Notes: generated from the sequence alone by a model not told the origin. 64,000 nucleotides of DNA from an uncultured Gammaproteobacteria bacterium (GCA_964590345.1 CAZPVP010000001.1:7937-71936); one strand, 5' to 3'. Shown: positions 6,524 through 37,378, numbered from the stretch's first letter. Made by a program: numbers and translations.

Positions 6524-6615
6524 AGGGCGAAAGCACCTCTTTTCTGGAAGGACACACTTTATTGTGTTACTATAACAGACTGAAGTCTGTCCCTCCGTTT
6601 AAGTCATTTTCGCTC
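6524..6615. repeat. about 90-bp palindromic intergenic repeat element (copy 1, degenerate ends)
   Basis: Shares ctggaaggacacactttaNtgtgtta...taacagact....tctgtccNtcc core with reverse-complement of 36316-36407 and a 23-nt exact match at 37299-37321; GGGCGAAAG... left end. Confidence 0.6.
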
Positions 6616-6659
6616 AAAATTTATATTTTTATTTTAACCTAAATTTTCCTAAAAATCAA

Positions 6660-6686
6660 AAAAACCCTTAATTTAAAGGGCTTCAT
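6660..6686 (-). terminator. rho-independent terminator (minus strand)
   Basis: On minus strand: AGCCCTT-taaatta-AAGGGTTTTTT downstream of stop of 6708..7019. Confidence 0.5.
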
Positions 6687-6707
6687 CAGGGTATTAAAAA
6701 ATAAACT

Positions 6708-7019
6708 CTAAGCATTTTCAGCTTTAAGCAATTCTACTTTTTTTTCTAACTCATAAATTCTTTTCTTTAATACTTCAATCTCTTGATAATTGGGTTTAAT
6801 ATCTTCATCGGTTCTTTTATCAATTTTATCAAGCCTCTCTTTTATATCTGCCAGTTCTTCTTCAATCTTATCTAGTCTCAGTATAATTGGAGCCAATTTT
6901 TCATCTAACTTATCATCCATCATTTTTTCCATAGCAGGCAATAATGTCTCTTCAGTAAATTGCGCTAAACCCTCATGGAATTTTTGTTGAGTTAAGGAAT
7001 TTTGATCATTTTCAGGCAT
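6708..7019 (-). CDS. small coiled-coil hypothetical protein
   Basis: 103 aa, heptad-like charged repeats (LDKIEEELADIKERLDKIDKR). Confidence 0.4.
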   Translation of the reverse strand: MPENDQNSLTQQKFHEGLAQFTEETLLPAMEKMMDDKLDEKLAPIILRLDKIEEELADIKERLDKIDKRTDEDIKPNYQEIEVLKKRIYELEKKVELLKAENA

Positions 7020-7058
7020 ATTTTTTTAAATTTATATTAACATTATAGCATATTAAAT

Positions 7059-8552
7059 TTATCTATGCAAAATATATTCGTAAATCAAATGAATAATAGA
7101 GCTTTTCGTTAACAAAGTAATTATCACACCTAATAGCATAAAAGGCGCAAAAGAAAAAGTTTTGTGCAAAATAATATGTTCAACCGGCGGATGTCCTTGG
7201 GCTTTAATTTCTTTATTTCTTTTTCTAATCATCTTTTTGATCTTCTCAGCCTGTTCCCGAGTCAATTTTCCGCGTAGGGATTTTATAAATATCTTAATCT
7301 CATTATTGTCACTTAAAATTAAATTTAACTGGTCTTTTTGTTCATTAGTTAATTTTTTTGTTATTTTATCAATTAAATCCTCCTCTGTTTTTTTATTTTT
7401 TTTATACTGATAAATATCTCTGATTAAAGAAGGCAAAGCATGAGGACTTAATCTTCTAAAAAATGAAATGAATTTATACTGCTTCCTATCCTGACTATCT
7501 TTTTTAGCTTTAATTAACTCCCAAAGGTGATCAAATTCTTCTTCTGGTAAAACATCTTTCACTTGTTTTTTAAATTTAGCAATATCCTTGTCAGTTTTAA
7601 AAATATCATTAAGTTGACTTTTGTTAATATATACTCCCGCCTGTAAATCATTGACTGGAATCATTCTCACTTCAGCTGAATTATAAAAAAATTGACCCAA
7701 CCTTTTACCATATTTAAAAATATAAAAAAATAACATCATAAATATCATTTGCAAAGCAAAAACTTTATGAAAATCTTCTATAATACTTTCATGAAAATAA
7801 ACTATTGTGCCAATAAAATATATTGCTATTAAAATTAAGGCAATAATTATTTTTTTTTGCAAAAATTGACGCAACGGACGAAAAATCAAAAACCCTATGA
7901 AGAAATATATAACATAAAAAAGATTACCTAAAAGTGGATCTAAAAAATTTTTAAACTTAGCTCTTATTAACTGAAATAAAATCAAAATTATTATAAAACT
8001 TAAACTAGTATATATGAATTCTTTAATTTTTATTTTATTTACTTTATGTTTTGATTTATAATTTTGAAAATATTTTTCAATTAATTTTGGTCTAAATAAA
8101 TAACTTACACCTAATTGGACTGGATACAATAACATTTTAATCAACAAATAAATAAAAATCGGCAAAATAATATTAATTAACAAGGTTAATGCAGGAAAAT
8201 ACTTAAAGTAAATAATGCCATAAAAACTAAAAGGAATTAAAAAAGCATAAAGTAAAAATAGCTTAGCATCACCACCTGACCAAAGTTTTAAATACCATAA
8301 GATAAAACCTAAAGCAAAAGCCAAACCAAAATTAGTTAATAAATATAAATAATCTAACCAATTAACTTCATATCTGGCTAATAATAAAATTATTAAAACT
8401 ACTATATTAATAACAGCTCCTAAAAATAAACCAATTTTTATCCATTTATTTTTAATTTTATTATACCTATAATCTTCGTAACAAACAATCAAGCCAATAA
8501 TTAAAACTATTAATATAAAAATATATACGATTACCTTGTTAAACAAAACCAT
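7059..8552 (-). CDS. A24-family prepilin-peptidase-like polytopic membrane protein with long charged C-terminal extension
   Basis: 497 aa; N-terminal multi-TM region containing LWSGGDAKLFLLYAF (GxGDxKL aspartyl-peptidase motif) and upstream YEDYRYNKIKN (first catalytic Asp context); last gene of the radical-SAM operon. Confidence 0.45.
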   Translation of the reverse strand: MVLFNKVIVYIFILIVLIIGLIVCYEDYRYNKIKNKWIKIGLFLGAVINIVVLIILLLARYEVNWLDYLYLLTNFGLAFALGFILWYLKLWSGGDAKLFLLYAFLIPFSFYGIIYFKYFPALTLLINIILPIFIYLLIKMLLYPVQLGVSYLFRPKLIEKYFQNYKSKHKVNKIKIKEFIYTSLSFIIILILFQLIRAKFKNFLDPLLGNLFYVIYFFIGFLIFRPLRQFLQKKIIIALILIAIYFIGTIVYFHESIIEDFHKVFALQMIFMMLFFYIFKYGKRLGQFFYNSAEVRMIPVNDLQAGVYINKSQLNDIFKTDKDIAKFKKQVKDVLPEEEFDHLWELIKAKKDSQDRKQYKFISFFRRLSPHALPSLIRDIYQYKKNKKTEEDLIDKITKKLTNEQKDQLNLILSDNNEIKIFIKSLRGKLTREQAEKIKKMIRKRNKEIKAQGHPPVEHIILHKTFSFAPFMLLGVIITLLTKSSIIHLIYEYILHR

Positions 8553-8556
8553 ACAA

Positions 8557-9441
8557 TTAAAATTTAACTGGTTTAATTATTTTTAAAACTGAATTATCAG
8601 AATCAACTTCAACAACATCGCCTTCAAAAAAATACTTATAAAAATTAATATTACTATAGATTAAAGGTTTTTTAATTTCTCGAAAAATCACTGCAACATG
8701 AGATGTATAACTATTTACTGGAGCAATAGTTGCCTTTACATTAATAAAATAAGGTAACAAATCCAAAGTTACTTTATTAATTAATAAAATATGATTCTTG
8801 AGTACTGCATCCTCTTTGTCAAACAGAAACTTAATTTCGCCAATCAAATTAGTATTTAAATTCATAATCTTTACAGGAATTTGCTTTTTAATATTCCTAC
8901 TATCATTAATCTCAGATAAAACTCTTAACATTTTTTCATCTTTATTTAATTTCGCAGATTCTAATATCTTTTTAATAACTCCTATATAACTTCCATAATA
9001 ATATGTTTTTCTTTGATAAGTAAAATTCCATTCATTTTTTATTTGTTGATATATATTTAATTGTTGAAATAATACATTTTTTATATTAATTAAATCACAT
9101 TCTTTTCTATATATATCAAATTTATCAGCAGGCAAAGAATAAATTTCAATTCGAGCATACTTTTTGACAAATTTCGCATATTCTTTAAAAAATTCAGAAC
9201 CATATGGAGGAATTAACTGCTCTTGATTTACAAATTCAACTTCCCAAGGAATTTTTGAATCTTTAATTAATATTTGGAATTGATTAAATTTATTATTTTT
9301 TAAAAAATAATAATCTTTAAAAAATAAACGGTTTTCAATAATCCAATCCTGATAACCAACCCCCCAACTATTAAGCATCTTATTCAAGCTTAATAATATT
9401 ACTTTAGTTTTATTTTCATTGTTTAAACTATTTAAAATCAT
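8557..9441 (-). CDS. hypothetical protein with C-terminal PEP-utilizing-enzyme mobile (phosphohistidine) domain-like segment
   Basis: C-terminal 60 aa VKATIAPVNSYTSHVAVIFREIKKPLIYSNINFYKYFFEGDVVEVDSDNSVLKI resembles PF00391 consensus (TSHAAIIARE..P....G..V.VDG). Confidence 0.35.
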   Translation of the reverse strand: MILNSLNNENKTKVILLSLNKMLNSWGVGYQDWIIENRLFFKDYYFLKNNKFNQFQILIKDSKIPWEVEFVNQEQLIPPYGSEFFKEYAKFVKKYARIEIYSLPADKFDIYRKECDLINIKNVLFQQLNIYQQIKNEWNFTYQRKTYYYGSYIGVIKKILESAKLNKDEKMLRVLSEINDSRNIKKQIPVKIMNLNTNLIGEIKFLFDKEDAVLKNHILLINKVTLDLLPYFINVKATIAPVNSYTSHVAVIFREIKKPLIYSNINFYKYFFEGDVVEVDSDNSVLKIIKPVKF

Positions 9442-9445
9442 AATT

Positions 9446-19905: not shown

Positions 19906-20086
19906 ATTTATTAAACAATAAACGCAAATTTTTTTTGAATATCCTTAAATATAAAACATCTACAATAATATATTCTTTTGCCAAATATGCCTTTAATTGT
20001 GAAATTCCCATGGGCAAAAAAGATCTATTATTGTCTATTAGATATTTAAATCCACCATTATAAATTAAATTTATTTTATTTTTCAT
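19829..20086 (-). CDS. small hypothetical protein between radical SAM genes
   Basis: 85-aa K/N-rich ORF, no Cys/His core; sits exactly in the gap between the two rSAM genes if the downstream paralog starts at about 19827. Confidence 0.3.
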   Translation of the reverse strand: MKNKINLIYNGGFKYLIDNNRSFLPMGISQLKAYLAKEYIIVDVLYLRIFKKNLRLLFNKFEMCKYYNIKNRFSWLLFKKNKNKN

Positions 20087-20088
20087 TG

Positions 20089-21171
20089 CTAATCTAAATT
20101 ATACAATTTTTTAAAAATAGTATTATTTTTTAATTTTTTAAAATAATTGAATAATATTTTATTAAAACTATATCGTAATTTTACTTGACTAGAATAAAAT
20201 CTCATAAAATTCAGGTTGTTATCCTGACAATAGATATATAAATCTATAGGACAAAATGGGACATTATTAAGATTAATTTTATTATTTAATTGTTTGATTT
20301 TCCTTTGCAAAAAATCAGCTTTATTAATCTCAATATTATCAGTTTTATTCAATTTATATTTTTCAAATAAACTCTTGTTGAACAAGCAACTTTGGCAAAG
20401 AAAAACATTTCCGTCATAATTAATTCTATATTTTTCACAATTTAATAATCTATGATTCTCATTATTTATTAATGATTCTAAATTAGTAATCTTAATGATT
20501 TTTTTATTTTTATTATCAACAAATAAACCAAAATAATCTTGCATTAAATTTTTAAAAAACCGTAAGCATTCTTTAATTTCATGATCCGACCAAAACTTAT
20601 AATTTTCAATGCCCAAATCAACGGCTTTAAATCCCATTTTATTAAAAAATAAAATATCTTTAGTTAATGAATTAAGATTATTGGGAGAAACAACTTTTGA
20701 AATAAATATTTTGGGAAAAATTGAAAAATCATTAAAATTTTTCAAATGTTGGGTAACCTGATCAAAGACTGATTTATTATTATTTTTAAATTTACGATTT
20801 TTATCATTTGTTTCCCTCTGTCCATCCAAACTTAAAATTATATTTAGATTTTCTTGAAGTAAATAATTCAAAATTTCATTATTAAACAAAGTACCATTAG
20901 TAATTAAACTGATTTCGTAATCAAAACCGACTTCGCTTTGCTTTTCTTTTATAAAAGAAACTAATTCCTGCAATTCTTTAAAAGAAAGTAAGGGTTCTCC
21001 GCCAGTAAAAGTAATAAATAAAAAGCTATTTTTATTTAAAAAATAGCTTAAATTTTCTTTTATTTTTTTTAGATTTATCTTATTGTTTTCTTGTTTTTTT
21101 ACATAACAATAATGGCAAGCCAAGTTGCACTTTGAATTTAAATGTATATATAAACTTAATTCTTTTTCCAT
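20089..21171 (-). CDS. radical SAM enzyme (HxsC-like position), with C-terminal Cys cluster
   Basis: 360 aa; CNLACHYCYV (Cx3Cx2C); FTGGEPLL; C-terminal CEKYRINYDGNVFLCQSC. Confidence 0.65.
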   Translation of the reverse strand: MEKELSLYIHLNSKCNLACHYCYVKKQENNKINLKKIKENLSYFLNKNSFLFITFTGGEPLLSFKELQELVSFIKEKQSEVGFDYEISLITNGTLFNNEILNYLLQENLNIILSLDGQRETNDKNRKFKNNNKSVFDQVTQHLKNFNDFSIFPKIFISKVVSPNNLNSLTKDILFFNKMGFKAVDLGIENYKFWSDHEIKECLRFFKNLMQDYFGLFVDNKNKKIIKITNLESLINNENHRLLNCEKYRINYDGNVFLCQSCLFNKSLFEKYKLNKTDNIEINKADFLQRKIKQLNNKINLNNVPFCPIDLYIYCQDNNLNFMRFYSSQVKLRYSFNKILFNYFKKLKNNTIFKKLYNLD

Positions 21172-21210
21172 ACATATCTTTTTCTAATTACCCCAAAATT
21201 AATTTTTCTT

Positions 21211-22101
21211 TTATTCCTCTTTTAAATATATAATATCAGTAGCATATTGACTATCAGTAAAACCTTCATAACAACATTGATTTAATTTATATTTTTCAAT
21301 AAATTGATTAATTTTTCTTGATTCAACTGCATTTTTAATATCCTTGCATATTTCATTATTACCATTTAAGTCCAAACATACAAATCTAGTTAAATCATCT
21401 TCAATCAAAGAACAATCGCTTAAATTTTCAATTAAATATAATGATAAATTATTCTTACAACTTTGGCTTGTCAAATCTTCTAATCTTGCTTCTTTTAAAT
21501 TAATAACCTTGGAACACCTTTCTTTTTCATCCTCTGAAGTTATAGCGAAACATGTATCATCCTGTACATTATCACAATATGATTCAGCAGCATAAATACC
21601 ACTTAACCATAAATCTTCACAATCTGGAGTTTTGGGTTGAACAACTTTATTTTCTTCACATATTTCTAAAAATCTATCCTTGTCATTTTTCTTCATAAAA
21701 TTCATGGCCGCAAAAACACCGACTTTCTTTTGACAATAACGTCTATTAGTACTACCTGGAAAATGATTATTAAAAACACTATTACATTCATCTAAAATAG
21801 CATTAGTATTATTTTTAATATTACAAAAAACATACAATTCCATTAAATAATAATAAGCTGCATAAGGCAGTTCAAGATTCTTAATATCCTGTAAATATTT
21901 ATTTTTTTCTTCAGTCTCTTGACGTGCTTTTTCTTCTTCTGTCAAAGGTGGCTGATTAATATTAGTTGGTTCTTTAGGTTGGTTAATTATTACTTCTGGC
22001 TCTAACTCAGCTGGAATTTTAATAAAAAAATATACTATTATGCCAACTAAAAGTATTAATATAATAATTATTAATATTAAGACAAAGATTGTTTTTTTCA
22101 T
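21211..22101 (-). CDS. membrane-anchored Cys-rich extracytoplasmic protein
   Basis: 296 aa; N-terminal TM (IFVLILIIIILILLVGIIVYFFI), Pro/Glu-rich linker, then about 20 Cys spread over about 200 aa. Confidence 0.5.
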   Translation of the reverse strand: MKKTIFVLILIIIILILLVGIIVYFFIKIPAELEPEVIINQPKEPTNINQPPLTEEEKARQETEEKNKYLQDIKNLELPYAAYYYLMELYVFCNIKNNTNAILDECNSVFNNHFPGSTNRRYCQKKVGVFAAMNFMKKNDKDRFLEICEENKVVQPKTPDCEDLWLSGIYAAESYCDNVQDDTCFAITSEDEKERCSKVINLKEARLEDLTSQSCKNNLSLYLIENLSDCSLIEDDLTRFVCLDLNGNNEICKDIKNAVESRKINQFIEKYKLNQCCYEGFTDSQYATDIIYLKEE

Positions 22102-22119
22102 AAAATCATTTATTAAAAA

Positions 22120-22524
22120 TTAGCACAATCCGACACCACTACTATGATGTCCATGAGAGCCATGAGAGCCATGAGAGCCATGAGAGCCATGAGAGCCATG
22201 AGAACCATGTGAACAATGTGAACCAACATTACCGTCATTATGAACAAAATTATTATGGCCATGCTGTCCCGTGTTCATTGGATTATTCCCAGCCTTCGTA
22301 CAATCACCATCTCCTGCTACATTTCTACAGCCAGGAATATTATTGGTTCCGTTTGTACCTCCTGAATCACAAGCCGGGACTGCTGCTTCTGCTTCTTCAG
22401 CTAAAATCCCTAAAGCAGTCACGCCAATACCAAGCATAATAATATCTTTTTTAGTTATTTTGCCCTCTTCATCATTTAAAAATTCATTAAATTTTTTCTT
22501 TAATTTCGGTAATTTATTTTTCAT
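22120..22524 (-). CDS. His-Xaa-Ser repeat protein, candidate RiPP precursor (HxsA-like)
   Basis: 134 aa; charged N-terminus, hydrophobic segment IIMLGIGVTALGILA, Gly/Asn/Cys-rich middle, C-terminal HCS-(HGS)x6-HGHHSSGVGLC. Immediately downstream of the SPASM rSAM gene. Confidence 0.6.
   Translation of the reverse strand: MKNKLPKLKKKFNEFLNDEEGKITKKDIIMLGIGVTALGILAEEAEAAVPACDSGGTNGTNNIPGCRNVAGDGDCTKAGNNPMNTGQHGHNNFVHNDGNVGSHCSHGSHGSHGSHGSHGSHGSHGHHSSGVGLC
22136..22205. repeat. perfect 9-bp tandem repeat (CCATGAGAG)n, about 6 copies plus 2 degenerate, coding the HGS repeats
   Basis: catgagagccatgagagccatgagagccatgagagccatgagagccatgagaaccatgtgaac read directly. Confidence 0.85.
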
Positions 22525-22551
22525 AAGTATTTGATTTTATATTAATTTATT

Positions 22552-24054
22552 TTATTTTTTAAATTCTTGAGTTCTAGATTTTCTTACCCATTCAGTAAAT
22601 ATATCTTTATTTTTACGATTTTTAAGCTTTTTAAACAAATATTCCACAATTGCCTCATCTATCTTATATTTTACATTATTTTTGGCTGCAGGGAAAATAT
22701 TATTATAAACAGAATAATTATAAACCGGGCAAATTCCTAAATATGGCTGATAAACATTTTGCTCATAAGCTGGCTGGCCATTAGAGCAAGAGGCTAGACA
22801 AATTGATTTGCATAAATCATTATTAATTAATTGCTCAAGATTATTTTCATTAATATTGCCAAGCTTAAACATGTCATCACCCATTCTGGCAATCATCCTG
22901 CCTTCATCACAAGTATAAACATCGCCATTATAATTATAAGCTAGCTGGCCAATACCAGCCCCGCAGGGAGAGCGCATATCCAAATTATTATAATCCTTAT
23001 TAAATAAAATTTTTGTTAAATAAGTTATTGCTGTAGCTTCAGAAAATAATCTGCCCTTATAATTTTTTTCCAATATATAATCAAGTGATTTTTTATAAAA
23101 ATTAATATATTCTTTTGGCGTATACCAAATTTTTTCTTTTGCTTTAACAGCAAAACCATAAGGATTTAAATAACGCAAATAAATATTTTTAAAGCCCAGT
23201 TTAATATAAGCATCTATTACTTTTTTATAATTTTCAAAAGTCTTTTTTGTGATTGTAATCAATGCGCCCACTCTGTAATAATTTCTTTTTTTGCCTTTAT
23301 ATTTTTCCTTATAAGCCTGATTAATCTTTTTTATCCATTTGGCTGTCTGCTGCCAGCTATTGCCGTGCAAAAAAACACGGTTGTAATTATGAGTTTCTTC
23401 GTCGCCATCCAAAGATGTGCAGAAATTAACTTCATTATCCATTAAAAATTTCATTTTCTTTTCATCAAGCAAACTAAAATTGGAAACCAACCTGATTTGC
23501 AAATCTTTTTTTTCTAATTTATTTTTCTCCCTTGAATAATCAACAATAAATTTAACTATGGGCCAGTTTAATAATGGCTCGCCGCCCTGAAATTCAATGG
23601 CAACCGCATTATTATTGGTTTTAAAAATAGTGTCAACTATTTTCTTGGCAGTAGCCATGTCCATATCCAAACTGTTGTCTTGTGCCTCGCCAGCGCTGGC
23701 ATGGCAGTAAATGCACTTATGATTGCAGCGCAAAGTTACCACAATAATATGAAGTGACGGGCCAAATTTTAAAAAATCATTTTTTTGCCTAAAGCCCTCA
23801 ATCAATTGATTTTGATAATTTTCATCTTTAATGAACAGATTATCTTTTAATTCCTGATATGTCTTATTTTTTTTTGTTAATTTGCCGGTTATGAATTTTT
23901 TAAAATCTTTTTCATCAATAAAAACATATTTGCCAACATCATTGGTTAATAAATAAGTATTTTTATCAAACTTTTTAAAGCGGAAAAATCCGACTTTTTT
24001 GGTATCTAACTTGTTGATGGTTTTTAGGTCTAGCATATTATCGCAAATGGCCAA
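22552..24054 (-). CDS. radical SAM/SPASM-domain peptide-modifying enzyme (HxsB-like / anaerobic-sulfatase-maturase-like)
   Basis: 500 aa; about 100-aa N-terminal extension, then CNHKCIYCHA (Cx3Cx2C), FQGGEPLL, C-terminal SPASM Cys pattern (CGAGIGQLAYNYNGDVYTCDEG ... CKSICLASCSNGQPAY...GICPV). Confidence 0.7.
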   Translation of the reverse strand: MAICDNMLDLKTINKLDTKKVGFFRFKKFDKNTYLLTNDVGKYVFIDEKDFKKFITGKLTKKNKTYQELKDNLFIKDENYQNQLIEGFRQKNDFLKFGPSLHIIVVTLRCNHKCIYCHASAGEAQDNSLDMDMATAKKIVDTIFKTNNNAVAIEFQGGEPLLNWPIVKFIVDYSREKNKLEKKDLQIRLVSNFSLLDEKKMKFLMDNEVNFCTSLDGDEETHNYNRVFLHGNSWQQTAKWIKKINQAYKEKYKGKKRNYYRVGALITITKKTFENYKKVIDAYIKLGFKNIYLRYLNPYGFAVKAKEKIWYTPKEYINFYKKSLDYILEKNYKGRLFSEATAITYLTKILFNKDYNNLDMRSPCGAGIGQLAYNYNGDVYTCDEGRMIARMGDDMFKLGNINENNLEQLINNDLCKSICLASCSNGQPAYEQNVYQPYLGICPVYNYSVYNNIFPAAKNNVKYKIDEAIVEYLFKKLKNRKNKDIFTEWVRKSRTQEFKK

Positions 24055-24077
24055 TGGCTTATGGCAAATGGTTATAA

Positions 24078-24431
24078 CTAATTTAAAATTGATTTTTTAA
24101 AAGCTTTAATCTTTTTTATTAAAATTTCAGCATTTATATACATGTTATCTTTTTCTGACTCACAAATATATCCTTTTATCTTCGCGAATATTAAAATATT
24201 AATTGTTTCATAAATTGAATTAATTGCAATATTCAAATATCTGCAGAATATTTTATTTGAATCAGAACCGCTACCTTCAACAATATTATTTGCTATTGAA
24301 ATAGCTGATCGTCTTAATTGATTCGCCAAAGCGAATAATTCATAATCAGGAAATTGTTTAGCTAAGTCATAACAATTATTAGCGTAATTTATAGATAATT
24401 TCCAAATTTCTAAATCTTCAAATCTAAACAT
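24078..24431 (-). CDS. four-helix-bundle protein (23S rRNA intervening-sequence protein family)
   Basis: MFRFEDLEIWKLS...FPDYE..LANQLRRSAISIANNIVEGSG matches the TIGR02436-type signature. Confidence 0.7.
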   Translation of the reverse strand: MFRFEDLEIWKLSINYANNCYDLAKQFPDYELFALANQLRRSAISIANNIVEGSGSDSNKIFCRYLNIAINSIYETINILIFAKIKGYICESEKDNMYINAEILIKKIKAFKKSILN

Positions 24432-24456
24432 ACTATTTGCTATAGGCTATTTGCCA

Positions 24457-24657
24457 TTAGCTAAGTAAGCCAAGCACATAATTGGCAAACTCGTCATCCA
24501 AAATATCTTTCACTTCCTTGTCAATTTTATTCATTTTAACCTCTATATAACCGTTTGTTTCTTTTACTTTAAAATCAGCTAAATTTTTAAATTCTTCAAC
24601 TGCTTGTTTCACAGCTTCTATATTATATATCTTTTTATTGAATTTGATAATGTCCAT
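24457..24657 (-). CDS. small hypothetical protein
   Basis: 66-aa ORF. Confidence 0.3.
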   Translation of the reverse strand: MDIIKFNKKIYNIEAVKQAVEEFKNLADFKVKETNGYIEVKMNKIDKEVKDILDDEFANYVLGLLS

Positions 24658-24756
24658 TGTTTGTTATTTGAAATTTAAAGGTTGAAATTTACTTGTAATT
24701 TGCCTTTGCAAACCACAGTTTGCTATGGCAAACAAAGGTTTGTAATTTGATATTTG

Positions 24757-25236: not shown

Positions 25237-25306
25237 TATATTATCAATTATTTATTATCTATTAACTAATGCCTATTGCCCTGCCTGTCGGCAGGCAGGC
25301 TAATGC

Positions 25307-26206: not shown

Positions 26207-26260
26207 TTTTCTTAAATTAAAATCATAAAAAAGTAAAAAACATCAATTTACTAAAATCAG

Positions 26261-27136: not shown

Positions 27137-27137
27137 T

Positions 27138-27821: not shown

Positions 27822-27906
27822 AATAATATAGCAAATGGCTTATGGCGAATAACAAATAGCCAATATTTAAATTCAAATCTCAAATTTCAGATCTCAGATT
27901 TAAAAT

Positions 27907-28431
27907 TTATTCTTCCTCTTTTTTCTTCTTGCGGATCAATACCATAACCACAATTGGCGTAACCAGCCAAAAAAATCTAGCCGGATCAGAAACGAATATG
28001 TTCTTCATTGCCACAGAAAGATTATTTTCCAACATTTCATTTGGCAAATATGACATTAAAATACTTAAAATTAAACCAACATGAAAAAAACTAAAAACGA
28101 TTGACTGCCACCAAGCGCCGTCGCTGTCTTTGCTGGCAATTGTTCTTAATAATGCTCCGCGGGACAGCAAAAAAAATAAAATCACAAAAATACCGACAAA
28201 AACAGTGAATTTGAAAATTGAAGCATTATTATAACTGATTTCAGCAGAAAAATTATTTAAATAAGGCGCAGTATTCACAATGGCCAAAGCCATATAAATA
28301 CTGACCAAAATAACAATTATGCGATTACGGCCCAAAGACAAGCCATACAAAAATGCAGCCACGACAAAAAACAAGATTATAAACAAATCCCAAGTAGGTG
28401 TTGCCCAATTTAAATTAAAGAGAAAATCCAT
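27907..28431 (-). CDS. polytopic membrane protein, hypothetical
   Basis: 174 aa, 4-5 predicted TM helices. Confidence 0.4.
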   Translation of the reverse strand: MDFLFNLNWATPTWDLFIILFFVVAAFLYGLSLGRNRIIVILVSIYMALAIVNTAPYLNNFSAEISYNNASIFKFTVFVGIFVILFFLLSRGALLRTIASKDSDGAWWQSIVFSFFHVGLILSILMSYLPNEMLENNLSVAMKNIFVSDPARFFWLVTPIVVMVLIRKKKKEEE

Positions 28432-28543
28432 GCCTGTGGATATTTATTTTCTTATTCATATTATACCATAAAATCCTTTGTCAAACAAAATCCAGCTCTT
28501 CGCGACGGGCTGGATTATTATCAAAAATATTAAAATTAAAAAA

Positions 28544-28789
28544 TCATGTAGTTAATTCAATATCTACTTTTTTGGCAATTTTTGTTATCCATTCCTCAAG
28601 CCGATTCACTTTAGACCTTAAAGCAGCCAATTCCTGAAAATAAGTATCAGCTTTTTTAGCGTAATTATCTACTGATGTTTGCAATACATCAAATTTCTGA
28701 TTCAGCTCTTCTAAATCCTTTTTTGTTGCAATTTCTTCTCTAGTTGCAAATACATCTATTAATTTTTGAATATCTTGCTCTTCAAGCAT
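28544..28789 (-). CDS. small coiled-coil hypothetical protein
   Basis: 81-aa ORF. Confidence 0.35.
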   Translation of the reverse strand: MLEEQDIQKLIDVFATREEIATKKDLEELNQKFDVLQTSVDNYAKKADTYFQELAALRSKVNRLEEWITKIAKKVDIELTT

Positions 28790-28923
28790 AAAATATTATT
28801 TATTGATTATATTTTTATTATACTTTAATTTTTATAAAAGTCAAACAAAAAACGACCTAATTTACCCACAATTAAGGCGGAGTTTGCAAATTGCGCCTTC
28901 GGCTGTTATTTATTTAACAAATC

Positions 28924-29015
28924 CAGCCGCCGCAGGGATAAAAATGTAGAGACGCGCCCATGGCACGTCTCTACAAAATATTTAAATACATAATTTTTTC
29001 GCCCTGCGGCGGCTG
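28924..29015. repeat. palindromic intergenic element (copy with CAGCCGCCGCAGGG terminal inverted repeats and tgtagagac/gtctctaca core hairpin)
   Basis: cagccgccgcaggg...tgtagagacgcgcccatggcacgtctctaca...ccctgcggcggctg; core hairpin shared with 31748-31777. Confidence 0.55.
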
Positions 29016-29018
29016 TCA

Positions 29019-30134
29019 TTATATCCCCTCATCCCTCAATTCCTCTAACAATTTCTTCTGCTTTTTATTCAAATTTTCCGGAGTTTTAACATCAATTTCC
29101 ACTAAATGGTCGCCGCGTCCATAGCGCTGGAATTTTGGCACGCCTTTGCCCTTTAAAACCAATATCTTGCCTGACTGGGTGCCGGCCGGGATTTTCAAAT
29201 TTACTTCCCCGTCAACTGTTTTTATCGGAATTTTATCGCCTAAAGCTGCCTGAGAAAAATTAATTGAAGCTTTTGTTATAATATTATCGCCCTCACGTTT
29301 AAAATCAGGATCTGGTTTAACCTGAATATGAATATACAAATCTCCTGCCTTATTGCCTTTAATTCCGGCTTCTCCCTCACCGCTCATTCTTAAAGTCATA
29401 TTATTATCAATGCCAGCCGGAACTTTGACGGGAATTTGCACCTTTTGCTTGATCCGCCCCTGGCCAGAACATTTTGAACAAGGCGTTTCATATGTTTTGC
29501 CCTCGCCTTGGCAATCAGGACAAACAGTGACGGCCTGAATATTGCCTAAAATTGTTCGCTGAACACGCTGAACTTGGCCTTGGCCGTTGCAGGTTTTACA
29601 TTCAGTAATTTTAGTGCCTGGTTCAGCACCATTTCCTTTGCATTTATCGCAAATAACTAATTTTTCCAGTTCAATTGTTTTTTCTGTACCAAAAACAGCC
29701 TCCTTAAAATCTAAAGCCAAAGAAACTTCAATATCACGGCCACTGCTTCTGGTCTTAGCTCTTGTTCTTGAGCCACCAAAGCCAAAACCACTGCCAAACA
29801 AATCGCCTAAAATATCGCCCAAGTCGCCAAAATCAAAATCAACATTGCTGTAAGTTGCGCCGCCTTGCCGAGCATATTTCATAAAATCATCCCAGTTCAT
29901 ACCGCCGCCAAAACCGCCCTGATCTTCAAATGTAGAGCCAAACTGGTCATATTGCTTTTTCTTCTCATCATTACCCAAAACTTGATAAGCTTCATTAACC
30001 TCTTTAAACTTTTTTTCATCGCCGTCTTTTTTATCAGGATGATATTTATGTGCTTTTTCTCTGAAAGCTTTTTTGATTTGTTCTTTGGTAGAGTTTTTAT
30101 CTACGCCTAAAATTTTGTAATAATCTTTTCCCAT
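29019..30134 (-). CDS. dnaJ: molecular chaperone DnaJ
   Basis: J-domain with HPD (KAHKYHPDKK), G/F-rich region, four CxxCxGxG zinc-finger repeats. Confidence 0.9.
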   Translation of the reverse strand: MGKDYYKILGVDKNSTKEQIKKAFREKAHKYHPDKKDGDEKKFKEVNEAYQVLGNDEKKKQYDQFGSTFEDQGGFGGGMNWDDFMKYARQGGATYSNVDFDFGDLGDILGDLFGSGFGFGGSRTRAKTRSSGRDIEVSLALDFKEAVFGTEKTIELEKLVICDKCKGNGAEPGTKITECKTCNGQGQVQRVQRTILGNIQAVTVCPDCQGEGKTYETPCSKCSGQGRIKQKVQIPVKVPAGIDNNMTLRMSGEGEAGIKGNKAGDLYIHIQVKPDPDFKREGDNIITKASINFSQAALGDKIPIKTVDGEVNLKIPAGTQSGKILVLKGKGVPKFQRYGRGDHLVEIDVKTPENLNKKQKKLLEELRDEGI

Positions 30135-30177
30135 AATATATTGAACGCTGAATCACTAATCAATTACCACGAATAAA

Positions 30178-30560
30178 TTAATTAACGATTCTGCGGTATT
30201 TAATTCCTTTTTTATTGAAAATTATTAATATCCCTAATTTCAAATTTTTTGCTTTTAAGTATCCCAAAACTTGTTTTATGTCTCGCGTATAAAATCCGTT
30301 CGCTATTTTTAATTCAACAATAAGCTTATCTTCAACAACAAAATCTAAAAAGTATTTGCCAATTATTTTTTCATTATAAATAAGTTTTACTGGACATTCT
30401 ATTTTATAAGCAATTTTCTCTTTTTTTAAACTCTTCAGCCAATGCTCGCTGATAAATCTTTTCACGATAACCAAATCCTAATTCATTAAATGATTTATAA
30501 ACACAACCAATTATCTTATAACTTAAATCTTTATAAATCAATTCCCCCATAAAAATTAGT
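30178..30560 (-). pseudogene. GxxExxY-family protein gene disrupted by a frameshift in a poly-A(7) tract
   Basis: N-terminal part (ATG at 30558-30560: MGELIYKDLSYKIIGCVYKSFNELGFGYREKIYQRALAEEFKK, contains GYREKIY) is in a different frame from 30178..30474 (…KEKIAYKIECPVKLIYNEKIIGKYFLDFVVEDKLIVELK). Junction is the T7 run at 30421-30427. Intact paralog at 45347..45745. Confidence 0.6.
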
Positions 30561-30600
30561 GTTATTAGTGGTTAAAAATTCGTGGTTCTGACCTCAATTA

Positions 30601-31704
30601 TTACCGTTTCTCCTTGAAATATTTCTCCAAATCAGCCATAAACTCCTTATTTTCAGTCAATTCAGTATTTTGTAAAATTTCTTTTATAACATTAACAATC
30701 ACTTTAACATCAAAACAATTTTCCGGACCGCCCGGCAATTTATCATGCCTTTGCCATTTTTTATAATTACCAAAAATCTTATCATGATCAACTGGTACGC
30801 TAATTAAAACCAAATCATCAACTTCATGGGGATTTTTAAGCGCCCGCGCCACTTGCCTTTGTTTTTTCTTAAAATCTTCTGATTTAGCGCTTTTCAAAGT
30901 AAATTGGATACCCAAGGTTTCTTCCTCACCTTTTGTTTCTTCAATTTCTTCAATACCCACCCCGCGATTTTTCTTGTGTTTAATTATAAAATCAATTTTT
31001 TGTTCTACGTCTTCAATTACTGTGGCTTTTTCAACTTTAATTCCCCATTTCTGCAAATCAATTGCCGTTTTGGCCAATAAATTATGGATCATTTTTTCAA
31101 AAAGCAAACCAGCTGATTCTGCACCGCCTTTTTCCATGGCTTGGCTGACTTTTTTATAAGTTTCAGCCAAATATTCGTCAATCTGCTCTTTTTCCAATTC
31201 TGTCCGCTGAATAATTAATTGCTGATTATATAATTTATCCGCTTCTGACTGATAAACTGCTTCAATATATTGTTTTTTAAAATCTTCAGGAACTTCCTCG
31301 TCCAATTGATAGTAAAGTTCCCAATTAATATCAGTCAGTAAATCACCCCGGCTAACTTTTTGGCTAAAACCTTTTTCGGTCGGAAATTCAAACTGCTTTT
31401 GCGCCGGATCATACTCAATTGCCCGCTGGTCAACTTTTAATTTAATTTCATTCTCTCTAATGGCTTCTTCTTTTTCTAATGCTACTCTTTGTTTTTGCAA
31501 TTCCAAATCAAAAATCCTGCGCTTAGGCTGTTCACCGCTGCCATATAATTCTTTGATTTTTTTCTTAACATGAGATCGTTGCTGTTTTTCTTCAGGGTTG
31601 ATAGCACCCTCCAGAGCTAATCTTTGGCGCGCTAAATCAGCGGCTTCTTCGTAATCAAAGCTTAATTTTGGTTGTTCTTCCCAATATTTTTCAAATTTAG
31701 GCAT
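30601..31704 (-). CDS. hypothetical protein
   Basis: 367-aa ORF, no recognizable motif. Confidence 0.4.
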   Translation of the reverse strand: MPKFEKYWEEQPKLSFDYEEAADLARQRLALEGAINPEEKQQRSHVKKKIKELYGSGEQPKRRIFDLELQKQRVALEKEEAIRENEIKLKVDQRAIEYDPAQKQFEFPTEKGFSQKVSRGDLLTDINWELYYQLDEEVPEDFKKQYIEAVYQSEADKLYNQQLIIQRTELEKEQIDEYLAETYKKVSQAMEKGGAESAGLLFEKMIHNLLAKTAIDLQKWGIKVEKATVIEDVEQKIDFIIKHKKNRGVGIEEIEETKGEEETLGIQFTLKSAKSEDFKKKQRQVARALKNPHEVDDLVLISVPVDHDKIFGNYKKWQRHDKLPGGPENCFDVKVIVNVIKEILQNTELTENKEFMADLEKYFKEKR

Positions 31705-31725
31705 AAAATTATAAATTATTTAATT

Positions 31726-31813
31726 GGGCGAAAACGCCCTGTGAAATTGTAGAGACATGGTTAACCGTGTCTCTACGGTAATTTACTTCCCAAATCCAGG
31801 GCGTTTTCGCCCT
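31726..31813. repeat. palindromic intergenic element (GGGCGAAAACGCCC / GGGCGTTTTCGCCC terminal hairpins, tgtagagac core)
   Basis: gggcgaaaacgccctgtgaaattgtagagacatggttaaccgtgtctctacggtaatttacttcccaaatccagggcgttttcgccc. Confidence 0.6.
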
Positions 31814-31859
31814 CATATTTAAACATAAGTTATTGCCAAATTAATTATTTATTGTTAAG

Positions 31860-32062
31860 TTATAAATTAAGAAGGGTATGCTATGGTGCTATTCAAACCA
31901 CCCTAACACCCTTACCTGTCCCACGGGTAGCGGCTATACTAAACCCTTAAACTTAATAGCCAAATTCCTCTCTCCCGCGGAAAATCCTGTGTTTAGGTTA
32001 GTAAGTATAGTGGGTTAGCCACCCATTTTAAAACGATTCAATCCTTTCGCTCGCACGAGAGG
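31860..32062 (+). ncRNA. candidate structured small RNA of unknown class, plus strand, ending at an intrinsic terminator
   Basis: No ORF on either strand. sigma70-like TTGCCA..TATAAAT upstream at about 31834-31858. GC-enriched, self-complementary segments (ccaccctaacaccc / gggttagccaccc). Terminator AATCCT-ttcgctcgcacgag-AGGATTTTTT at 32032-32062. Confidence 0.25.
32032..32062 (+). terminator. rho-independent terminator
   Basis: Stem AATCCT(tt)CGCTCG-ca-CGAGAGGATT followed by TTTTTT. Confidence 0.5.
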
Positions 32063-32111
32063 ATTTTTTATTCATGTTTATTCGTGAATAAAAATTCGTG
32101 GTTCAGCCATC

Positions 32112-32453
32112 CTATATACTCGGAAATGGAATTCCTTTTGGCGGCTCTGATTCTTCAATTTCTCCAAATTGCTGTTCATACTTATTCAAATTATCCTGCA
32201 ATGCTTTAATAATTCTTTTCAAATGCCCTGGACTGGTAATAATCCTGGCATTTAAAATTCCCTGCGGCGGAACAACATTAGCAAAATCCAAAATAAACTC
32301 TTCCTTAGTATGCGCTACCTGCATCATGTTAGCATAACGTCCAGCTAAAACCTCATCAGTAATTTTGATGTTGATTTGTTTCTTTTGTGGTTGGTTTTGT
32401 TGATTTTCCATAAATATTTTATTATCCCCGTAGGTGAAACGCCAGCGTTTCAA
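32112..32453 (-). CDS. DUF3467-family protein
   Basis: MENQQN...INIKITDEVLAGRYANMMQVAHTKEEFILDF...ARIITSPGHLKRIIKALQDNLNKYE matches the DUF3467 pattern; real start likely the internal Met (MENQQNQ). Confidence 0.5.
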   Translation of the reverse strand: MKRWRFTYGDNKIFMENQQNQPQKKQINIKITDEVLAGRYANMMQVAHTKEEFILDFANVVPPQGILNARIITSPGHLKRIIKALQDNLNKYEQQFGEIEESEPPKGIPFPSI

Positions 32454-32474
32454 CTACGGGAGCAAGATGATTAA

Positions 32475-34499
<2,025 letters not shown>

Positions 34500-34582
34500 T
34501 TAATAATTTAGCTTAGGGCTAAGGGCCCTGAGCTTAGAGCAAAGCCCTAAGCTTCAAGCCCACAGCTCGAAGCCAAATCTTA

Positions 34583-34611
34583 TTGACAATACATTTTAAA
34601 ATTGTTATGAT
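34583..34611 (+). promoter_or_regulatory. consensus sigma70-type promoter
   Basis: TTGACA (34583-34588), 17-nt spacer, TATGAT (34606-34611); SD AGGAGG at 34651-34656. Confidence 0.55.
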
Positions 34612-34661
34612 ATCAGCGTCGTTCCCCTAAACTTTAACCTAAAAAAACAAAGGAGGGAAAT

Positions 34662-34985
34662 TTGAATATGCCTGAAGTTAATGGAGCGGGCCAAAATCAA
34701 GTAAAATTAATTGAAGTTTCAAAACCTGGGAGCAATAGCCAAATAAAGTACATGACTATAAAAGTCGCTGAAGAACTTTTGCAAGGGGGAGAAAAAAAAC
34801 CAGAATCAAGAGCAAAATTCCTACTTCGTCAAATGCCTGATCATCTATTTTTGATAAGTGAAGGAGAAATCGCTAAGGTCAAATTCGGCGATCAAGAAGC
34901 AAAACTTTTTAGCGACGGAAATGGAGTGAGAATAATCGTCCCCTGGCATATGGAATTGCCGCATGAAAAACAAACAAATAACTAA
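34662..34985 (+). CDS. small hypothetical protein (probable ATG start at 34668)
   Basis: 107-aa ORF with its own promoter, strong SD and terminator, antisense to the surrounding heat-shock genes. Confidence 0.5.
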   Translation: MNMPEVNGAGQNQVKLIEVSKPGSNSQIKYMTIKVAEELLQGGEKKPESRAKFLLRQMPDHLFLISEGEIAKVKFGDQEAKLFSDGNGVRIIVPWHMELPHEKQTNN

Positions 34986-35017
34986 AATTTAATAATCCTC
35001 AATGGGGGGACGTCTAA

Positions 35018-35047
35018 GCCGGTTAATCTTGACCGGCTTTTTTTATC
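35018..35047 (+). terminator. rho-independent terminator
   Basis: AAGCCGGTtaatcttgACCGGCTTTTTTT. Confidence 0.6.
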
Positions 35048-35156
35048 ACGTCACTCGCGAGTGACGTGATTTTATTTAATTTTCAAATTTCTCCCAGATA
35101 AATCAATCAAATTTTGCCTAACTTATCTGGAAGGCCCTAATCAGGGCGCTTCTCAT

Positions 35157-35648
35157 TTATTTCTTTTTCTTCTCAGTAGTTTTCTTCTTTTTAGTAGCAA
35201 CTTTTTTAGCTTTGTTTTTTTTAACACTAGTTTTAACTTTCTTACCTTTAGCTTCTTTTTCCATTGGCACTGTAATTGTCAAAATACCGTCTTTATATTC
35301 TGATTTAGCCTTGTCTTGCTGTACTTCGGCTGGCAACAAAATTGATCTTTGAAAGCTGCCATGTTTAATTTCTTTCCGATAATAATCTTTTTCATCAATT
35401 TCTGATTTTTTCTCGGTCTTACCTTTTACAGTCAAAACATTGTCTTTGATTTTAATATCAATATTCTTTGGATCAAAATTGGAAATCGGTGCTTTGACTA
35501 CCAAATTACCTTTTTCCTTGTAAACATCCATGGCTGGTATAAAAATTTTTTCTGTTGAAGGTTGAAATTCACGCAATGCTTTTTCAAAATCATCCCATGG
35601 TTCAAAAAAAGGTGACCATTTTATTATTGGCATAAAATATACCCCCAA
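35157..35648 (-). CDS. Hsp20/alpha-crystallin small heat-shock protein
   Basis: PAMDVYKEKGNLVVKAPISNFDPKNIDIKIKDNVLTVKGK...GILTITVPM alpha-crystallin domain. Confidence 0.8.
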   Translation of the reverse strand: MGVYFMPIIKWSPFFEPWDDFEKALREFQPSTEKIFIPAMDVYKEKGNLVVKAPISNFDPKNIDIKIKDNVLTVKGKTEKKSEIDEKDYYRKEIKHGSFQRSILLPAEVQQDKAKSEYKDGILTITVPMEKEAKGKKVKTSVKKNKAKKVATKKKKTTEKKKK

Positions 35649-35826
35649 TCTGCTAAAAGCTAAGTAATAGCAGAATTAATTATATTTAATAACCAAATTC
35701 CAAATTCTAAACTTATTTTGGTTATTTGAATTTAGAATTTATAATTTATTTGTTGTTTGGCCTTCGCCAACCAAAGTTGGCTTCGGCCAACTAAGGTTGG
35801 AATTTAATATTTGTAATTTTAAATGT

Positions 35827-36333
35827 TTATTCCCCTACAATAACTTTCGCAGGTATTATCACTTTTCCATTTAATTTGTATCCTGAATTTACTTCTTTAA
35901 GAATTATATCTTTCTCGCCTTGCTCTTTACCGACTGCTTCATGCAAATTATGATCAAATTTCTCGCCTATTGTTTTTATTTTCTCCAAGCCATTTCGCGC
36001 TAAAAAATCCTCTAATTGTTTTTTAATATGAAAAACGCCTTTTACCCAATCTTTATTCTCTTGATCCTCAGGCACATGATTTACTGCTTTAGTAAAATTA
36101 TCTAAAATTGGCACTAACTCACTTAAAAAATCTGCTTTGGCTAAATTAACTAACTCGCTCATTTTTTTTTCAGTTTCTTTTCTTAAATTCTCATAATCAG
36201 CTTTAGCCCGCTGCCAGCCGGATAAATATTCATTACATTTTTCCTTTAATTCTTCTATCTCTTTTTGGGTTTTTAAATTTTTATCTTTCATAAATGATAT
36301 TAAAGAATAAAGTCTGGCGAAAAACGCCCTCAA
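35827..36333 (-). CDS. grpE: nucleotide exchange factor GrpE (annotated start lies inside a repeat element; real start probably Met at about 36291, MKDKNLK)
   Basis: FDHNLHEAVG, coiled-coil N-terminus, C-terminal beta domain (GYKLNGKVIIPAKV). Confidence 0.85.
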   Translation of the reverse strand: MRAFFARLYSLISFMKDKNLKTQKEIEELKEKCNEYLSGWQRAKADYENLRKETEKKMSELVNLAKADFLSELVPILDNFTKAVNHVPEDQENKDWVKGVFHIKKQLEDFLARNGLEKIKTIGEKFDHNLHEAVGKEQGEKDIILKEVNSGYKLNGKVIIPAKVIVGE

Positions 36334-36407
36334 TTGGATGGACAGAGTTTAGTCTGTTACATTAACACACTAAAGTGTGTCCTTCCAGACAAAGGGCGTT
36401 TCGCCCT
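36316..36407. repeat. palindromic intergenic element (GGCGAAAAACGCCC / GGGCGTTTCGCCC ends; inverted copy of the 6524-6615 element)
   Basis: Reverse complement aligns at about 85% to 6524-6615 (ctggaaggacacactttaGtgtgttaatgtaacagactaaactctgtccatcc). Fills the grpE-hrcA junction and overlaps both annotated ORF ends. Confidence 0.65.
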
Positions 36408-37095
36408 AAACTCTTACTAATGAATCCTTTATATATTCAACCAAGGCCAAATTCTTATTATAATCCATTCTTTTGGGACCCAAAATAATAAACAAACCTG
36501 ACTTCTTATCTTTAAGCTGATATTTACCAATCACTGAAGAACAATCATCGCCAAAAGGATTTTTTGAGCCGATTAAAATTTCCACCTTATTTATCTTATC
36601 AAAAATTTTATTAATCTTGTCATCCAGATGATCGATTACCTGAGAAAAATTGCAGATTAAATTCTGTTCGGCAAATTCGGGTTTTTTAAACAAATTCGTC
36701 AAGCCGGTATAATAAATATTATTTTTATCAAAAGCCACGATCACTGTTTCATCAGCGAAATCAACGACTGTTTTGGCCAAATTTTTCAAAACTAAATCTT
36801 TATCAATTTTATTTTTTAAAACTTTTTCAAAAGACTGCCGCCAATTAGCTTGGATTTCCCGCTTTTCAACAAAATTATCCACGTAAAACTGATAACCTTT
36901 TTCAGTCGGTACCCGGCCGGCAGAGGTATACGGCTGATAAATAAAGCCTTGTTTTTCTAAATCAAACATTTCGTTTCTGATGGTCGCCGGTGAAACATTT
37001 TCTCGCGAACTCAAAAGCTTACTACCGACAGGAGCGGCCGTTTTTATGTGTTCAGAAATAATTAAATTTAATAAATTTTTCTGACGGTTTTTCAT
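36406..37095 (-). CDS. hrcA: heat-inducible transcriptional repressor HrcA (short form)
   Basis: N-terminal wHTH APVGSKLLS...VSPATIRNEMFDLEKQGFIYQPYTSAGRVPTEKGYQFYVD. Confidence 0.8.
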   Translation of the reverse strand: MKNRQKNLLNLIISEHIKTAAPVGSKLLSSRENVSPATIRNEMFDLEKQGFIYQPYTSAGRVPTEKGYQFYVDNFVEKREIQANWRQSFEKVLKNKIDKDLVLKNLAKTVVDFADETVIVAFDKNNIYYTGLTNLFKKPEFAEQNLICNFSQVIDHLDDKINKIFDKINKVEILIGSKNPFGDDCSSVIGKYQLKDKKSGLFIILGPKRMDYNKNLALVEYIKDSLVRV

Positions 37096-37217
37096 AAAAC
37101 TAATTAAATTCTAAAAAGTTTAATTCATTTAAATTTAGAATTTAACATTTAAAATTTACAGCTGCGGTAGATTTAAAAACTCAAATATTGCCCTTTTTTT
37201 ATATTATACTGCAGCTA

Positions 37218-37244
37218 TTAGCACTCGTCAAGAGTGAGTGCTAA
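37218..37244. promoter_or_regulatory. CIRCE operator (HrcA binding site)
   Basis: TTAGCACTC-gtcaagagt-GAGTGCTAA, perfect 9-N9-9 inverted repeat, about 120 nt upstream of hrcA start. Confidence 0.85.
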
Positions 37245-37378
37245 ATTGAATATGAATTTACGAATAAGCTACGGATACTACAAATTTTCCCCCTTTGCGG
37301 AAGGACACACTTTATTGTGTTGCCTCCCCCTCAATAAAAAATCCCCACCCAGATATTTATCTAGACAGGGATACCAAT

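Follow-up and report, generated by a model that had tools for sequence, protein, structure and literature searches.

Candidate REP- or MITE-like hairpin repeats in the intergenic spacers of a probable Parcubacteria genome

Rickettsia palindromic elements are mobile palindromic repeats carried by the small, gene-dense genome of a host-dependent bacterium. Repetitive extragenic palindromic (REP) sequences and their paired form, the REPINs, are defined in two accounts as extragenic arrangements of two inverted REP palindromes that form a larger hairpin and are mobilised by REP-associated tyrosine transposases (RAYTs) (PMC3337134, PMC3116915), and the miniature inverted-repeat transposable element (MITE) and stem-loop families of bacteria, including Correia/NEMIS in Neisseria, ERIC, RUP and bcr1, have been surveyed (PMC2267715). 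Our search for literature on REP- or MITE-like repeats in the candidate phyla radiation (CPR, Patescibacteria) found none. Here we describe palindromic elements of 85–107 nt, without internal open reading frames (ORFs), in other Parcubacteria contigs and in a 64,000-nt stretch of DNA (GCA_964590345.1 CAZPVP010000001.1:7937-71936; hereafter the window) that probably derives from a member of the Parcubacteria. We lean, if only slightly, towards regarding these elements as small non-coding, hairpin-forming intergenic repeats, akin to REPs/REPINs or MITEs, that genomes acquire and lose in their spacers and that are moved in trans and co-transcribed with their neighbours. A first-pass annotation of the window had already proposed small palindromic, non-coding, intergenic repeats resembling MITEs and REPs, a description borne out by further copies elsewhere, by their absence from the syntenic spacers of relatives and by variable spacer occupancy.

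The window holds five or six elements, those with the core termed type 1 occurring about once per 25 kb. E1 (6525–6615, plus strand) carries this core, hairpin A followed by hairpin B, at 6546–6596, and has a broken closing pair in hairpin A (G to T) and degenerate arms, GGGCGAAAG / TTTTCGCTC, which pair only with each other and form no local hairpins. It precedes the cysS start codon (6505, minus strand) by 20 nt and is antisense to its flanking genes. E2 (36316–36406, minus strand) is an intact type-1 element with its core at 36336–36386 and arms GGGCGAAACGCCC / GGGCGTTTTTCGCC on the minus strand; it is bounded by GGCGAAAAACGCC / GGGCGTTTCGCCC, looser variants of GGGCGWWWWCGCCC, and occupies the hrcA–grpE spacer, extending 1 nt over the hrcA stop codon and ending 24 nt ahead of the grpE ATG (36291). 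The two are inverted copies of each other over 73 nt (E1 6531–6603 against E2 36329–36401, 81% complementarity), and their 51-nt cores are 88% identical. Shuffled sequences predict no occurrence of the 23-mer GGAAGGACACACTTTANTGTGTT, which the window contains at 6546, at 37299 and, on the minus strand, at 36364, confirming the 23-nt exact fragment previously reported at 37299–37321. This fragment belongs to a truncated type-1 copy (37297–37330, plus strand), situated between the ORF at 37379–37765 and the CIRCE/promoter region of hrcA, which retains the outer stem and hairpin A and has hairpin B and the linker deleted. Its sequence at 37299–37321 is identical to E1 including the private G-to-T change, and therefore at least one duplication or conversion has taken place within this genome, from an E1-like copy. 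A covariance model built on the type-1 core (R1), used together with pattern scans to seek copies, gave E-values of about 1e-21 for E1 and E2 and 8e-5 for the fragment (37295–37335). A possible decayed type-1 relative at 53587–53669, with no strand assigned, contains nested inverted repeats (TCCAGC..GCTGGA and TGGAAGGC..GCCTTCCA); its local alignment score against E1 and E2 is 34–37 (shuffles 19.4 +/- 3.5) and its covariance-model score 13 bits.

Two further elements carry a type-2 core. E3 (31726–31812, plus strand), 21 nt upstream of the start of a gene for a 367-aa protein (30601–31704, minus strand), has arms GGGCGAAAACGCCC / GGGCGTTTTCGCCC with GGGCGWWWWCGCCC present exactly at both ends, and a core hairpin TGTAGAGACA-loop-TGTCTCTACGG with 20 unpaired nucleotides as its 3' tail. 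Its interior, a GTAGAGACA..TGTCTCTAC hairpin, is unrelated to the core of E1 and E2; the only common part is the GGGCGAAAA/TTTTCGCCC arms. The first-pass annotation had united E1, E2 and E3 in one family, which holds for E1 and E2 and must be narrowed to the arms for E3. E4 (28924–29015, plus strand), discovered by a scan for local inverted repeats and matching the core of E3, follows the dnaJ stop codon by 3 nt and consists of a GTAGAGAC..GTCTCTAC core with an 18-nt 3' tail, within arms CAGCCGCCGCAGGGATAAAAA / TTTTTCGCCCTGCGGCGGCTG that contain the GGGCGAAAA unit. Folding of the copies, suggested earlier as a check, placed E4 (−54.5 kcal/mol), E3 (−53.7) and E2 (−47.1) as the three most stable 110-nt folds in the entire window (background −13.3 +/- 6.4). 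Of the five clear elements, all but E1 fall within a region of about 8.4 kb containing hrcA-grpE-hsp20-dnaK-dnaJ (28900–37330), which makes up 13% of the window, and a type-2 copy in a related genome (L007, below) is also in the hrcA–dnaJ cluster; this clustering was spotted post hoc. The longest grpE ORF (35827–36333) begins at a TTG within E2, and the likely start is the ATG at 36291, by comparison with the MKDK N-termini of relatives. Of the overlap with both ORF ends that had been attributed to E2, the single nucleotide at the hrcA stop thus stands, while that with grpE exists only if the longest, TTG-initiated ORF is taken.

The window has a G+C content of 32% and nearly all of its genes are on the minus strand. 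Because its HrcA, which has a 100%-identical match on an NCBI contig, shares 85% identity with a protein labelled Candidatus Buchananbacteria, and because the sole match in a type-1 pattern scan of a species-representative genome collection was a Candidatus Parcubacteria metagenome-assembled genome, the source organism appears to be an uncultivated Parcubacteria/Patescibacteria (CPR) bacterium. At least five further Parcubacteria contigs contain the type-1 core, in every case between genes and with no fixed orientation, with two copies each in L001 (G+C 42%) and L005 (39%) and one each in L002 (35%), L003/L012 (36.5%) and L004 (37%); the pair in L005 lies within 2.2 kb and that in L001 within 8 kb. 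These type-1 carriers (L001–L005 and L012) were compared along with the closest relatives of the window (L006–L010, HrcA 80–87% identical, ~75 kb). In the census on which our statements about position and orientation are based, comprising 15 elements from the window and the other loci, all 15 are intergenic, in agreement with their earlier placement in gene junctions and leaders (E1, ahead of cysS, included), and they face both ways with respect to the genes beside them. Many fill the entire spacer, starting −1 to 8 nt past a stop codon and ending 11–24 nt before the next start. The genes flanking type-1 copies (cysS, hrcA/grpE, thrS/miaB, prfB/GT2 and a pyrH-like gene) are functionally unrelated. 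A miniature 40-nt type-1 core fills the spacer between the signal-peptide-peptidase and archease genes (L012 2406–2445, equivalent to L013 877–916) and keeps both hairpins, as CCCAC-TTTA-GTGGG and CTGAC-TAAA-GTCAG with compensatory stem changes, inside a different outer stem. A type-3 core, ..GTTTACAGTGAGC..CGAACTGAA.., is found in the thrS–miaB spacer of L014 (9144–9250) and L015 (2705–2811) and after a DUF2304 gene in L019 (about 11150–11300), and is enclosed by two different long stems, one of which has GGCGCGAAAAA arms. A viral collection yielded nothing apart from one chance match (L011) to the hairpin-B palindrome alone, and blastn searches of plasmids and phages gave no match.

The type-1 core reads GGAAGGA-CACAC-TTTA-GTGTG-TTA-NNN-TAA-CAGAC-TAAA-GTCTG-TCCNTCC and is closed by a stem of 7 bp (GGAAGGA/TCCNTCC) in which a single mismatch is conserved. 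Hairpins A and B repeat one 19-nt unit in opposite orientations, each matching AACAGACTNAANTCTGTCC on a different strand. Across ten sequences, a structure with two local hairpins had 94.9% of cells paired and four double-sided changes, and none of 500 shuffles reached as good a covariation score, whereas an extended-hairpin structure had 81.3% of cells paired and one double-sided change, with 313 of 500 shuffles at least as good. Hairpins A and B account for three of the four double-sided changes, namely A-U to U-A (L001b) and A-U to C-G (the miniature copy) in hairpin A and C-G to U-A (L001a) in hairpin B, while the fourth, in the outer stem, depends on the less certain alignment of the miniature copy. 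The latter also has an A-U to U-A change in hairpin B that is apparent by eye, the automatic alignment having misplaced these columns. This pattern supports two local tetraloop hairpins, CAC-TTTA-GTG and GAC-TAAA-GTC, as the probable conserved form of the type-1 element. One fully extended hairpin is disfavoured, both by pairing no better than in shuffles and by invariant C.C and G.G mismatches. Unpaired columns of the type-1 core vary more often than paired ones (7 of 13 and 8 of 38, respectively, p = 0.037). RNA folding energies compared on both strands showed no consistent strand preference, and since the halves are inverted either strand gives a TTTA-loop hairpin followed by a TAAA-loop hairpin; with the same loop order on both strands, mixed orientation alone does not argue against a role at the RNA level. 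An attempt to assign arm polarity from the left A-run and right T-run was dropped, as any inverted repeat looks alike on both strands.

Every full copy is bounded by an outer stem of 9–21 bp, complementary in each case, and a short unconserved internal loop separates this stem from the core. The stem recurs in the form G(G/C)GCGAAAA ... TTTTCGC(C/G)C, with such arms in E1–E4, L002, L004, both L005 copies, L007 and L014, representing six genomes. Arms are defined across copies by their mutual pairing and not by local terminal hairpins, the local forms being different in L002 (GCGAAAATGCC/GGCATTTTCGC) and L007 (GGCGAAAACGGCC/GGCCGTTTTCGCC) and lacking a local hairpin in E4 and L014. The GGGCG-AAAA-CGCCC terminal hairpins once thought to be general to the family, which E1 also lacks, are consequently confined to a subset. 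GCGAAAA arms enclose type-1, type-2 and type-3 cores. The type-1 core is also found in terminator-like AAAAATCCGC/GCGGATTTTT arms (L001, L012) and the type-3 core in GGGAAAAAAGGCCTCC arms (L019), while the type-2 core (E3, E4) is a single GTAGAGAC-loop-GTCTCTAC hairpin with a one-sided tail of 18–21 nt, the tail being conserved between the window and L007. Such mixing could reflect elements that recombine or nest, or cores that have inserted into existing hairpins. A core-less arm hairpin was found neither in the window nor in the other loci, where the GGCG-W-CGCC motif occurs only as element arms.

The closest relatives differ from the window in what lies between the same genes. The type-1 core is absent from the ~75 kb of syntenic sequence in L006–L010, the hrcA–grpE spacers of which measure 1–79 nt and in some cases hold unrelated palindromes. 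Between the gene for a 365-aa protein and dnaJ, L007 has a type-2 element and L006 and L010 have a spacer of 12–13 nt; at this position the window has a PDDEXK_3 gene, its own type-2 copies being in other spacers. The thrS–miaB spacer is occupied by a type-1 element in L012 and by a type-3 element in its 84%-identical relatives L014 and L015, and the prfB–GT2 spacer by a type-1 element in L005 and by a 23S_rRNA_IVP gene in 90% relatives (L017, L018). A fourth palindrome family, GCTTAGGGC..GAGCTTAGAG..GCCCTAAGC, is present upstream of dnaK in the window (about 34503–34580) and in L010 (10691–10769) and L006 (10691–10732), the alignment between the window copy and that in the L010 hrcA–grpE spacer scoring 54 (shuffles 16.5 +/- 3). 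Because equivalent spacers are occupied by different elements or by none across relatives, these spacers appear to turn over, with palindromic elements arriving and leaving. Pairwise identity of the type-1 core is 80–98% in all comparisons and 88–98% between some well-diverged genomes, and the GT2 orthologues of L005 and of the contig taken as the source of the window share 68% identity. Judged from these comparisons, the type-1 element seems far better conserved than the surrounding housekeeping proteins, which would call for either transfer between genomes or strong constraint.

Under the reading that we favour, namely REP- or MITE-like repeats moved in trans, the elements would be moved or copied by an enzyme encoded elsewhere that recognises folded hairpins and not terminal repeats alone, most simply on single-stranded DNA in the manner in which RAYT/HUH enzymes recognise REPs. 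Once inserted, they would be co-transcribed with the flanking cistrons and form RNA hairpins of −33 to −54 kcal/mol, which at the tight intercistronic copies E1, E2 and E3 might be neutral, impede mRNA decay or serve as sites of processing. Since no T-run follows the stem in E1–E3 and the next start codon is only 20–24 nt away, they are probably read through, and the terminator role suggested in the first-pass annotation is unlikely as regards efficient termination at these copies. The combination of GC stem and U-tract that marks an intrinsic terminator is lacking in E1–E3 and found only in the arm variant of L001 and L012; the L001 and L003/L012 variants, with an A-run, GC stem and T-run, look like bidirectional terminators.

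As far as the two accounts cited above describe the REPs and REPINs of E. coli and Pseudomonas, the elements resemble them in being non-coding inverted palindromic doublets that form a larger hairpin, in being strictly extragenic and often placed right after stop codons inside operons, and in conserving hairpin units rather than termini. They differ in having an extra outer stem around the doublet and conserved C.C and G.G mismatches that prevent the A and B units from pairing, in their patchy, not lineage-faithful distribution between genomes, in a copy density that, extrapolated from the window, is far below the hundreds per genome typical of REPINs, and in the lack of a RAYT gene among the 65 window ORFs tested. 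E. coli REPs carry a conserved GTAG-type foot, and the elements described here have none. With bacterial MITE and stem-loop families they share a length of about 90 bp, terminal inverted repeats, a non-coding and intergenic nature, several dispersed copies, different interiors under one terminal repeat, stable RNA hairpins and probable co-transcription. Unlike MITEs, they show no consistent target-site duplication, the 65 window ORFs tested include no parent insertion sequence sharing their ends, the interior is more conserved than the ends, and the same interior also occurs with unrelated ends. The persistence of palindromic repeats in a small gene-dense genome recalls the Rickettsia palindromic elements, which unlike those in our census often lie in frame within genes. 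Intrinsic terminators are similar in following stop codons and in the A-run/GC-stem/T-run of the L001/L012 arms, and dissimilar in that the window copies have no U-tract and precede a start codon closely, and in that a conserved 51-nt interior has no role in termination.

Several observations weigh against mobile repeats of this kind. None of the 65 window ORFs tested, nor any called gene of L012, has a transposase, integrase or RAYT domain, and element density in the window is modest. Across nine copies besides E2 there is no consistent target-site duplication, the flanks being AT-rich, and the sole candidate is an 8-bp pair at E2 (AGAGTTTA / AGACTTTA, 7/8 match). No clean empty site could be aligned, as spacers are unalignable at 80–90% protein identity. 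In a typical MITE the arms would be better conserved than the core, and here the opposite holds. Cores and arms also seem to combine independently of each other, which the mobile reading can accommodate only by supposing something further, for instance that elements nest or recombine with one another. Type-1 pairs within a genome are 88%, 82% and 92% identical and seem no closer than pairs between genomes, which also makes it doubtful that the copies mark recent genome plasticity, as had been claimed, the window copies being 88% alike. Finally, the concentration of variation in loops looks like constraint on individual copies and not like neutral decay.

The last two points are also what would be expected if the elements were a structured RNA maintained by the host, a possible but doubtful alternative in which a double-tetraloop three-way junction, with any closing stem, is selected at each site as a signal in polycistronic mRNA, perhaps bound by a factor that processes or stabilises the transcript, or as a small RNA. 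Structured RNAs typically have a conserved apical core on a closing stem that varies yet remains complementary, as here, the compensatory changes lie in local hairpins, all copies are situated where transcription is expected, 1–30 nt from stop or start codons, and the predicted UUUA-then-UAAA loop order on either strand would permit mixed orientation. Such a host function is harder to reconcile with flanking genes unrelated in function, with the same spacers in the closest relatives lacking the motif, with folding energies that favour neither strand consistently, with truncated or degenerate copies (E1, 37297–37330 and 53587–53669) and with several unrelated cores at the same kind of site. We are similarly tentative about the proposal that the cores, especially the type-1 C-UUUA-G/C-UAAA-G junction, are exchangeable functional modules, nested in generic closing stems, that a dedicated Parcubacteria protein reads on RNA or single-stranded DNA and that are selected in the intercistronic spacers of compact operons. 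If true, this would define an undescribed class of cis-acting signal, acting in mRNA processing or stability or through a domesticated hairpin-recognising enzyme, and so take the elements beyond selfish DNA.

Mixing of cores and arms could also arise if the core alone were mobile and inserted into the loops of terminators or of an older GGGCGAAAA..TTTTCGCCC palindrome, the arms then being target DNA. We regard this as improbable, although it would explain why one core occurs in different arms (type 1 in GCGAAAA and AAAAATCCGC/GCGGATTTTT, type 3 in GGCGCGAAAAA and GGGAAAAAAGGCCTCC), why GCGAAAA arms surround three unrelated cores and why placement is terminator-like, 1–8 nt past stop codons, given that no empty GGGCGAAAA..TTTTCGCCC hairpin occurs in the window or the loci and that the spacers between arm and core are unconserved and show no duplication. 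Very little speaks for two 14-bp palindromic operators (CACAC-N4-GTGTG and CAGAC-N4-GTCTG, 23 bp apart) bound as double-stranded DNA by a dimeric regulator or nucleoid protein: each hairpin is indeed a perfect dyad and the changes in L001 and the miniature copy preserve dyad symmetry, but there is no common regulon, the sites are inside operons beside stop codons and not at promoters, a regulator site has no need of long complementary outer arms, and two-sided changes of half-sites are more simply explained as maintenance of base pairs. Equally hard to credit are ordinary intrinsic terminators, or unrelated hairpins alike by chance or convergence, since despite the A-run/GC-stem/T-run of the L001 and L003/L012 copies and the canonical terminators that relatives have after dnaJ, at the site of E4 in the window, 51-nt cores 88–98% identical across genomes cannot be convergence, window copies have no T-run after the stem, and E1–E3 leave no room for a promoter before the next start.

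Other candidate classes were rejected. At 51 nt the core is too long, and its density too low, for a DNA-uptake sequence. The integron attC site (R''/R' boxes RYYYAAC ... GTTRRRY) did not match by inspection of the ends (GGGCGAAAA/TTTTCGCCC), orientation is mixed and no integrase was found among the window ORFs tested. A self-cleaving, hammerhead-like ribozyme is, by inspection, at odds with the junction strands (0, 9 and 0 nt) and with the invariant bases, and Rfam gave no match to one. No element reached the gathering threshold of any Rfam 15 model, the only passes in the window being two tRNAs; the best matches of E2 and E3 were generic microRNA-hairpin models far below threshold, and the type-3 loci had no match at either gathering or permissive thresholds.

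The CPR/Patescibacteria have small, gene-dense genomes, in which several families of 70–110-nt palindromes here come and go between the same genes. In practical terms the elements mislead annotation, as with the grpE start mis-extended into E2 and the hrcA stop codon that overlaps E2 by 1 nt, and they could help to type strains and check assemblies. They are also a plausible influence on the stability of operon mRNAs, and the assortment of cores and arms together with covarying local hairpins offers a handle for finding the enzyme that recognises them.

Several neighbouring features were noted alongside the elements. The PDDEXK_3 (GxxExxY-type) gene of the window (30178–30474) is bracketed by a 9-bp inverted repeat, ACCACGAAT (30166–30174 and 30578–30586), and a 16-nt exact copy of the upstream end of this unit, GAACCACGAATTTTTA, lies just past the stop codon of a DUF3467 gene (32089–32104). 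Because relatives have only 12–13 nt at this spacer, the unit looks like an insertion. Beside E3, between the DUF3467 gene and that for the 367-aa protein, about 300 nt are non-coding (31813–32111) where the L010 spacer measures 17 nt; they contain a terminator-like hairpin (32040–32065) and a G+C-richer, possibly structured stretch, and the interval 31660–31990 had no match in Rfam. Upstream of hrcA, a canonical CIRCE (controlling inverted repeat of chaperone expression) operator, TTAGCACTC-N9-GAGTGCTAA (37218–37244), overlaps a near-consensus promoter, TTGACG-17-TATAAT (37203–37231), an arrangement also seen in relatives. Small 23S_rRNA_IVP and PDDEXK_3 genes are scattered between other genes (window 24078–24431 and 45347–45745; L017 1077–1436), the IVP gene of L017 at the prfB–GT2 spacer being at the site of the L005 type-1 element. 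Finally, about eleven radical-SAM genes, including an HD-domain fusion and one encoding a SPASM domain, occupy 9446–24054 beside a small ORF (22120–22524) that holds a 9-nt tandem repeat (22135–22233) encoding Gly-Ser-His repeats; together these may resemble a peptide-modification cluster of the His-Xaa-Ser type.

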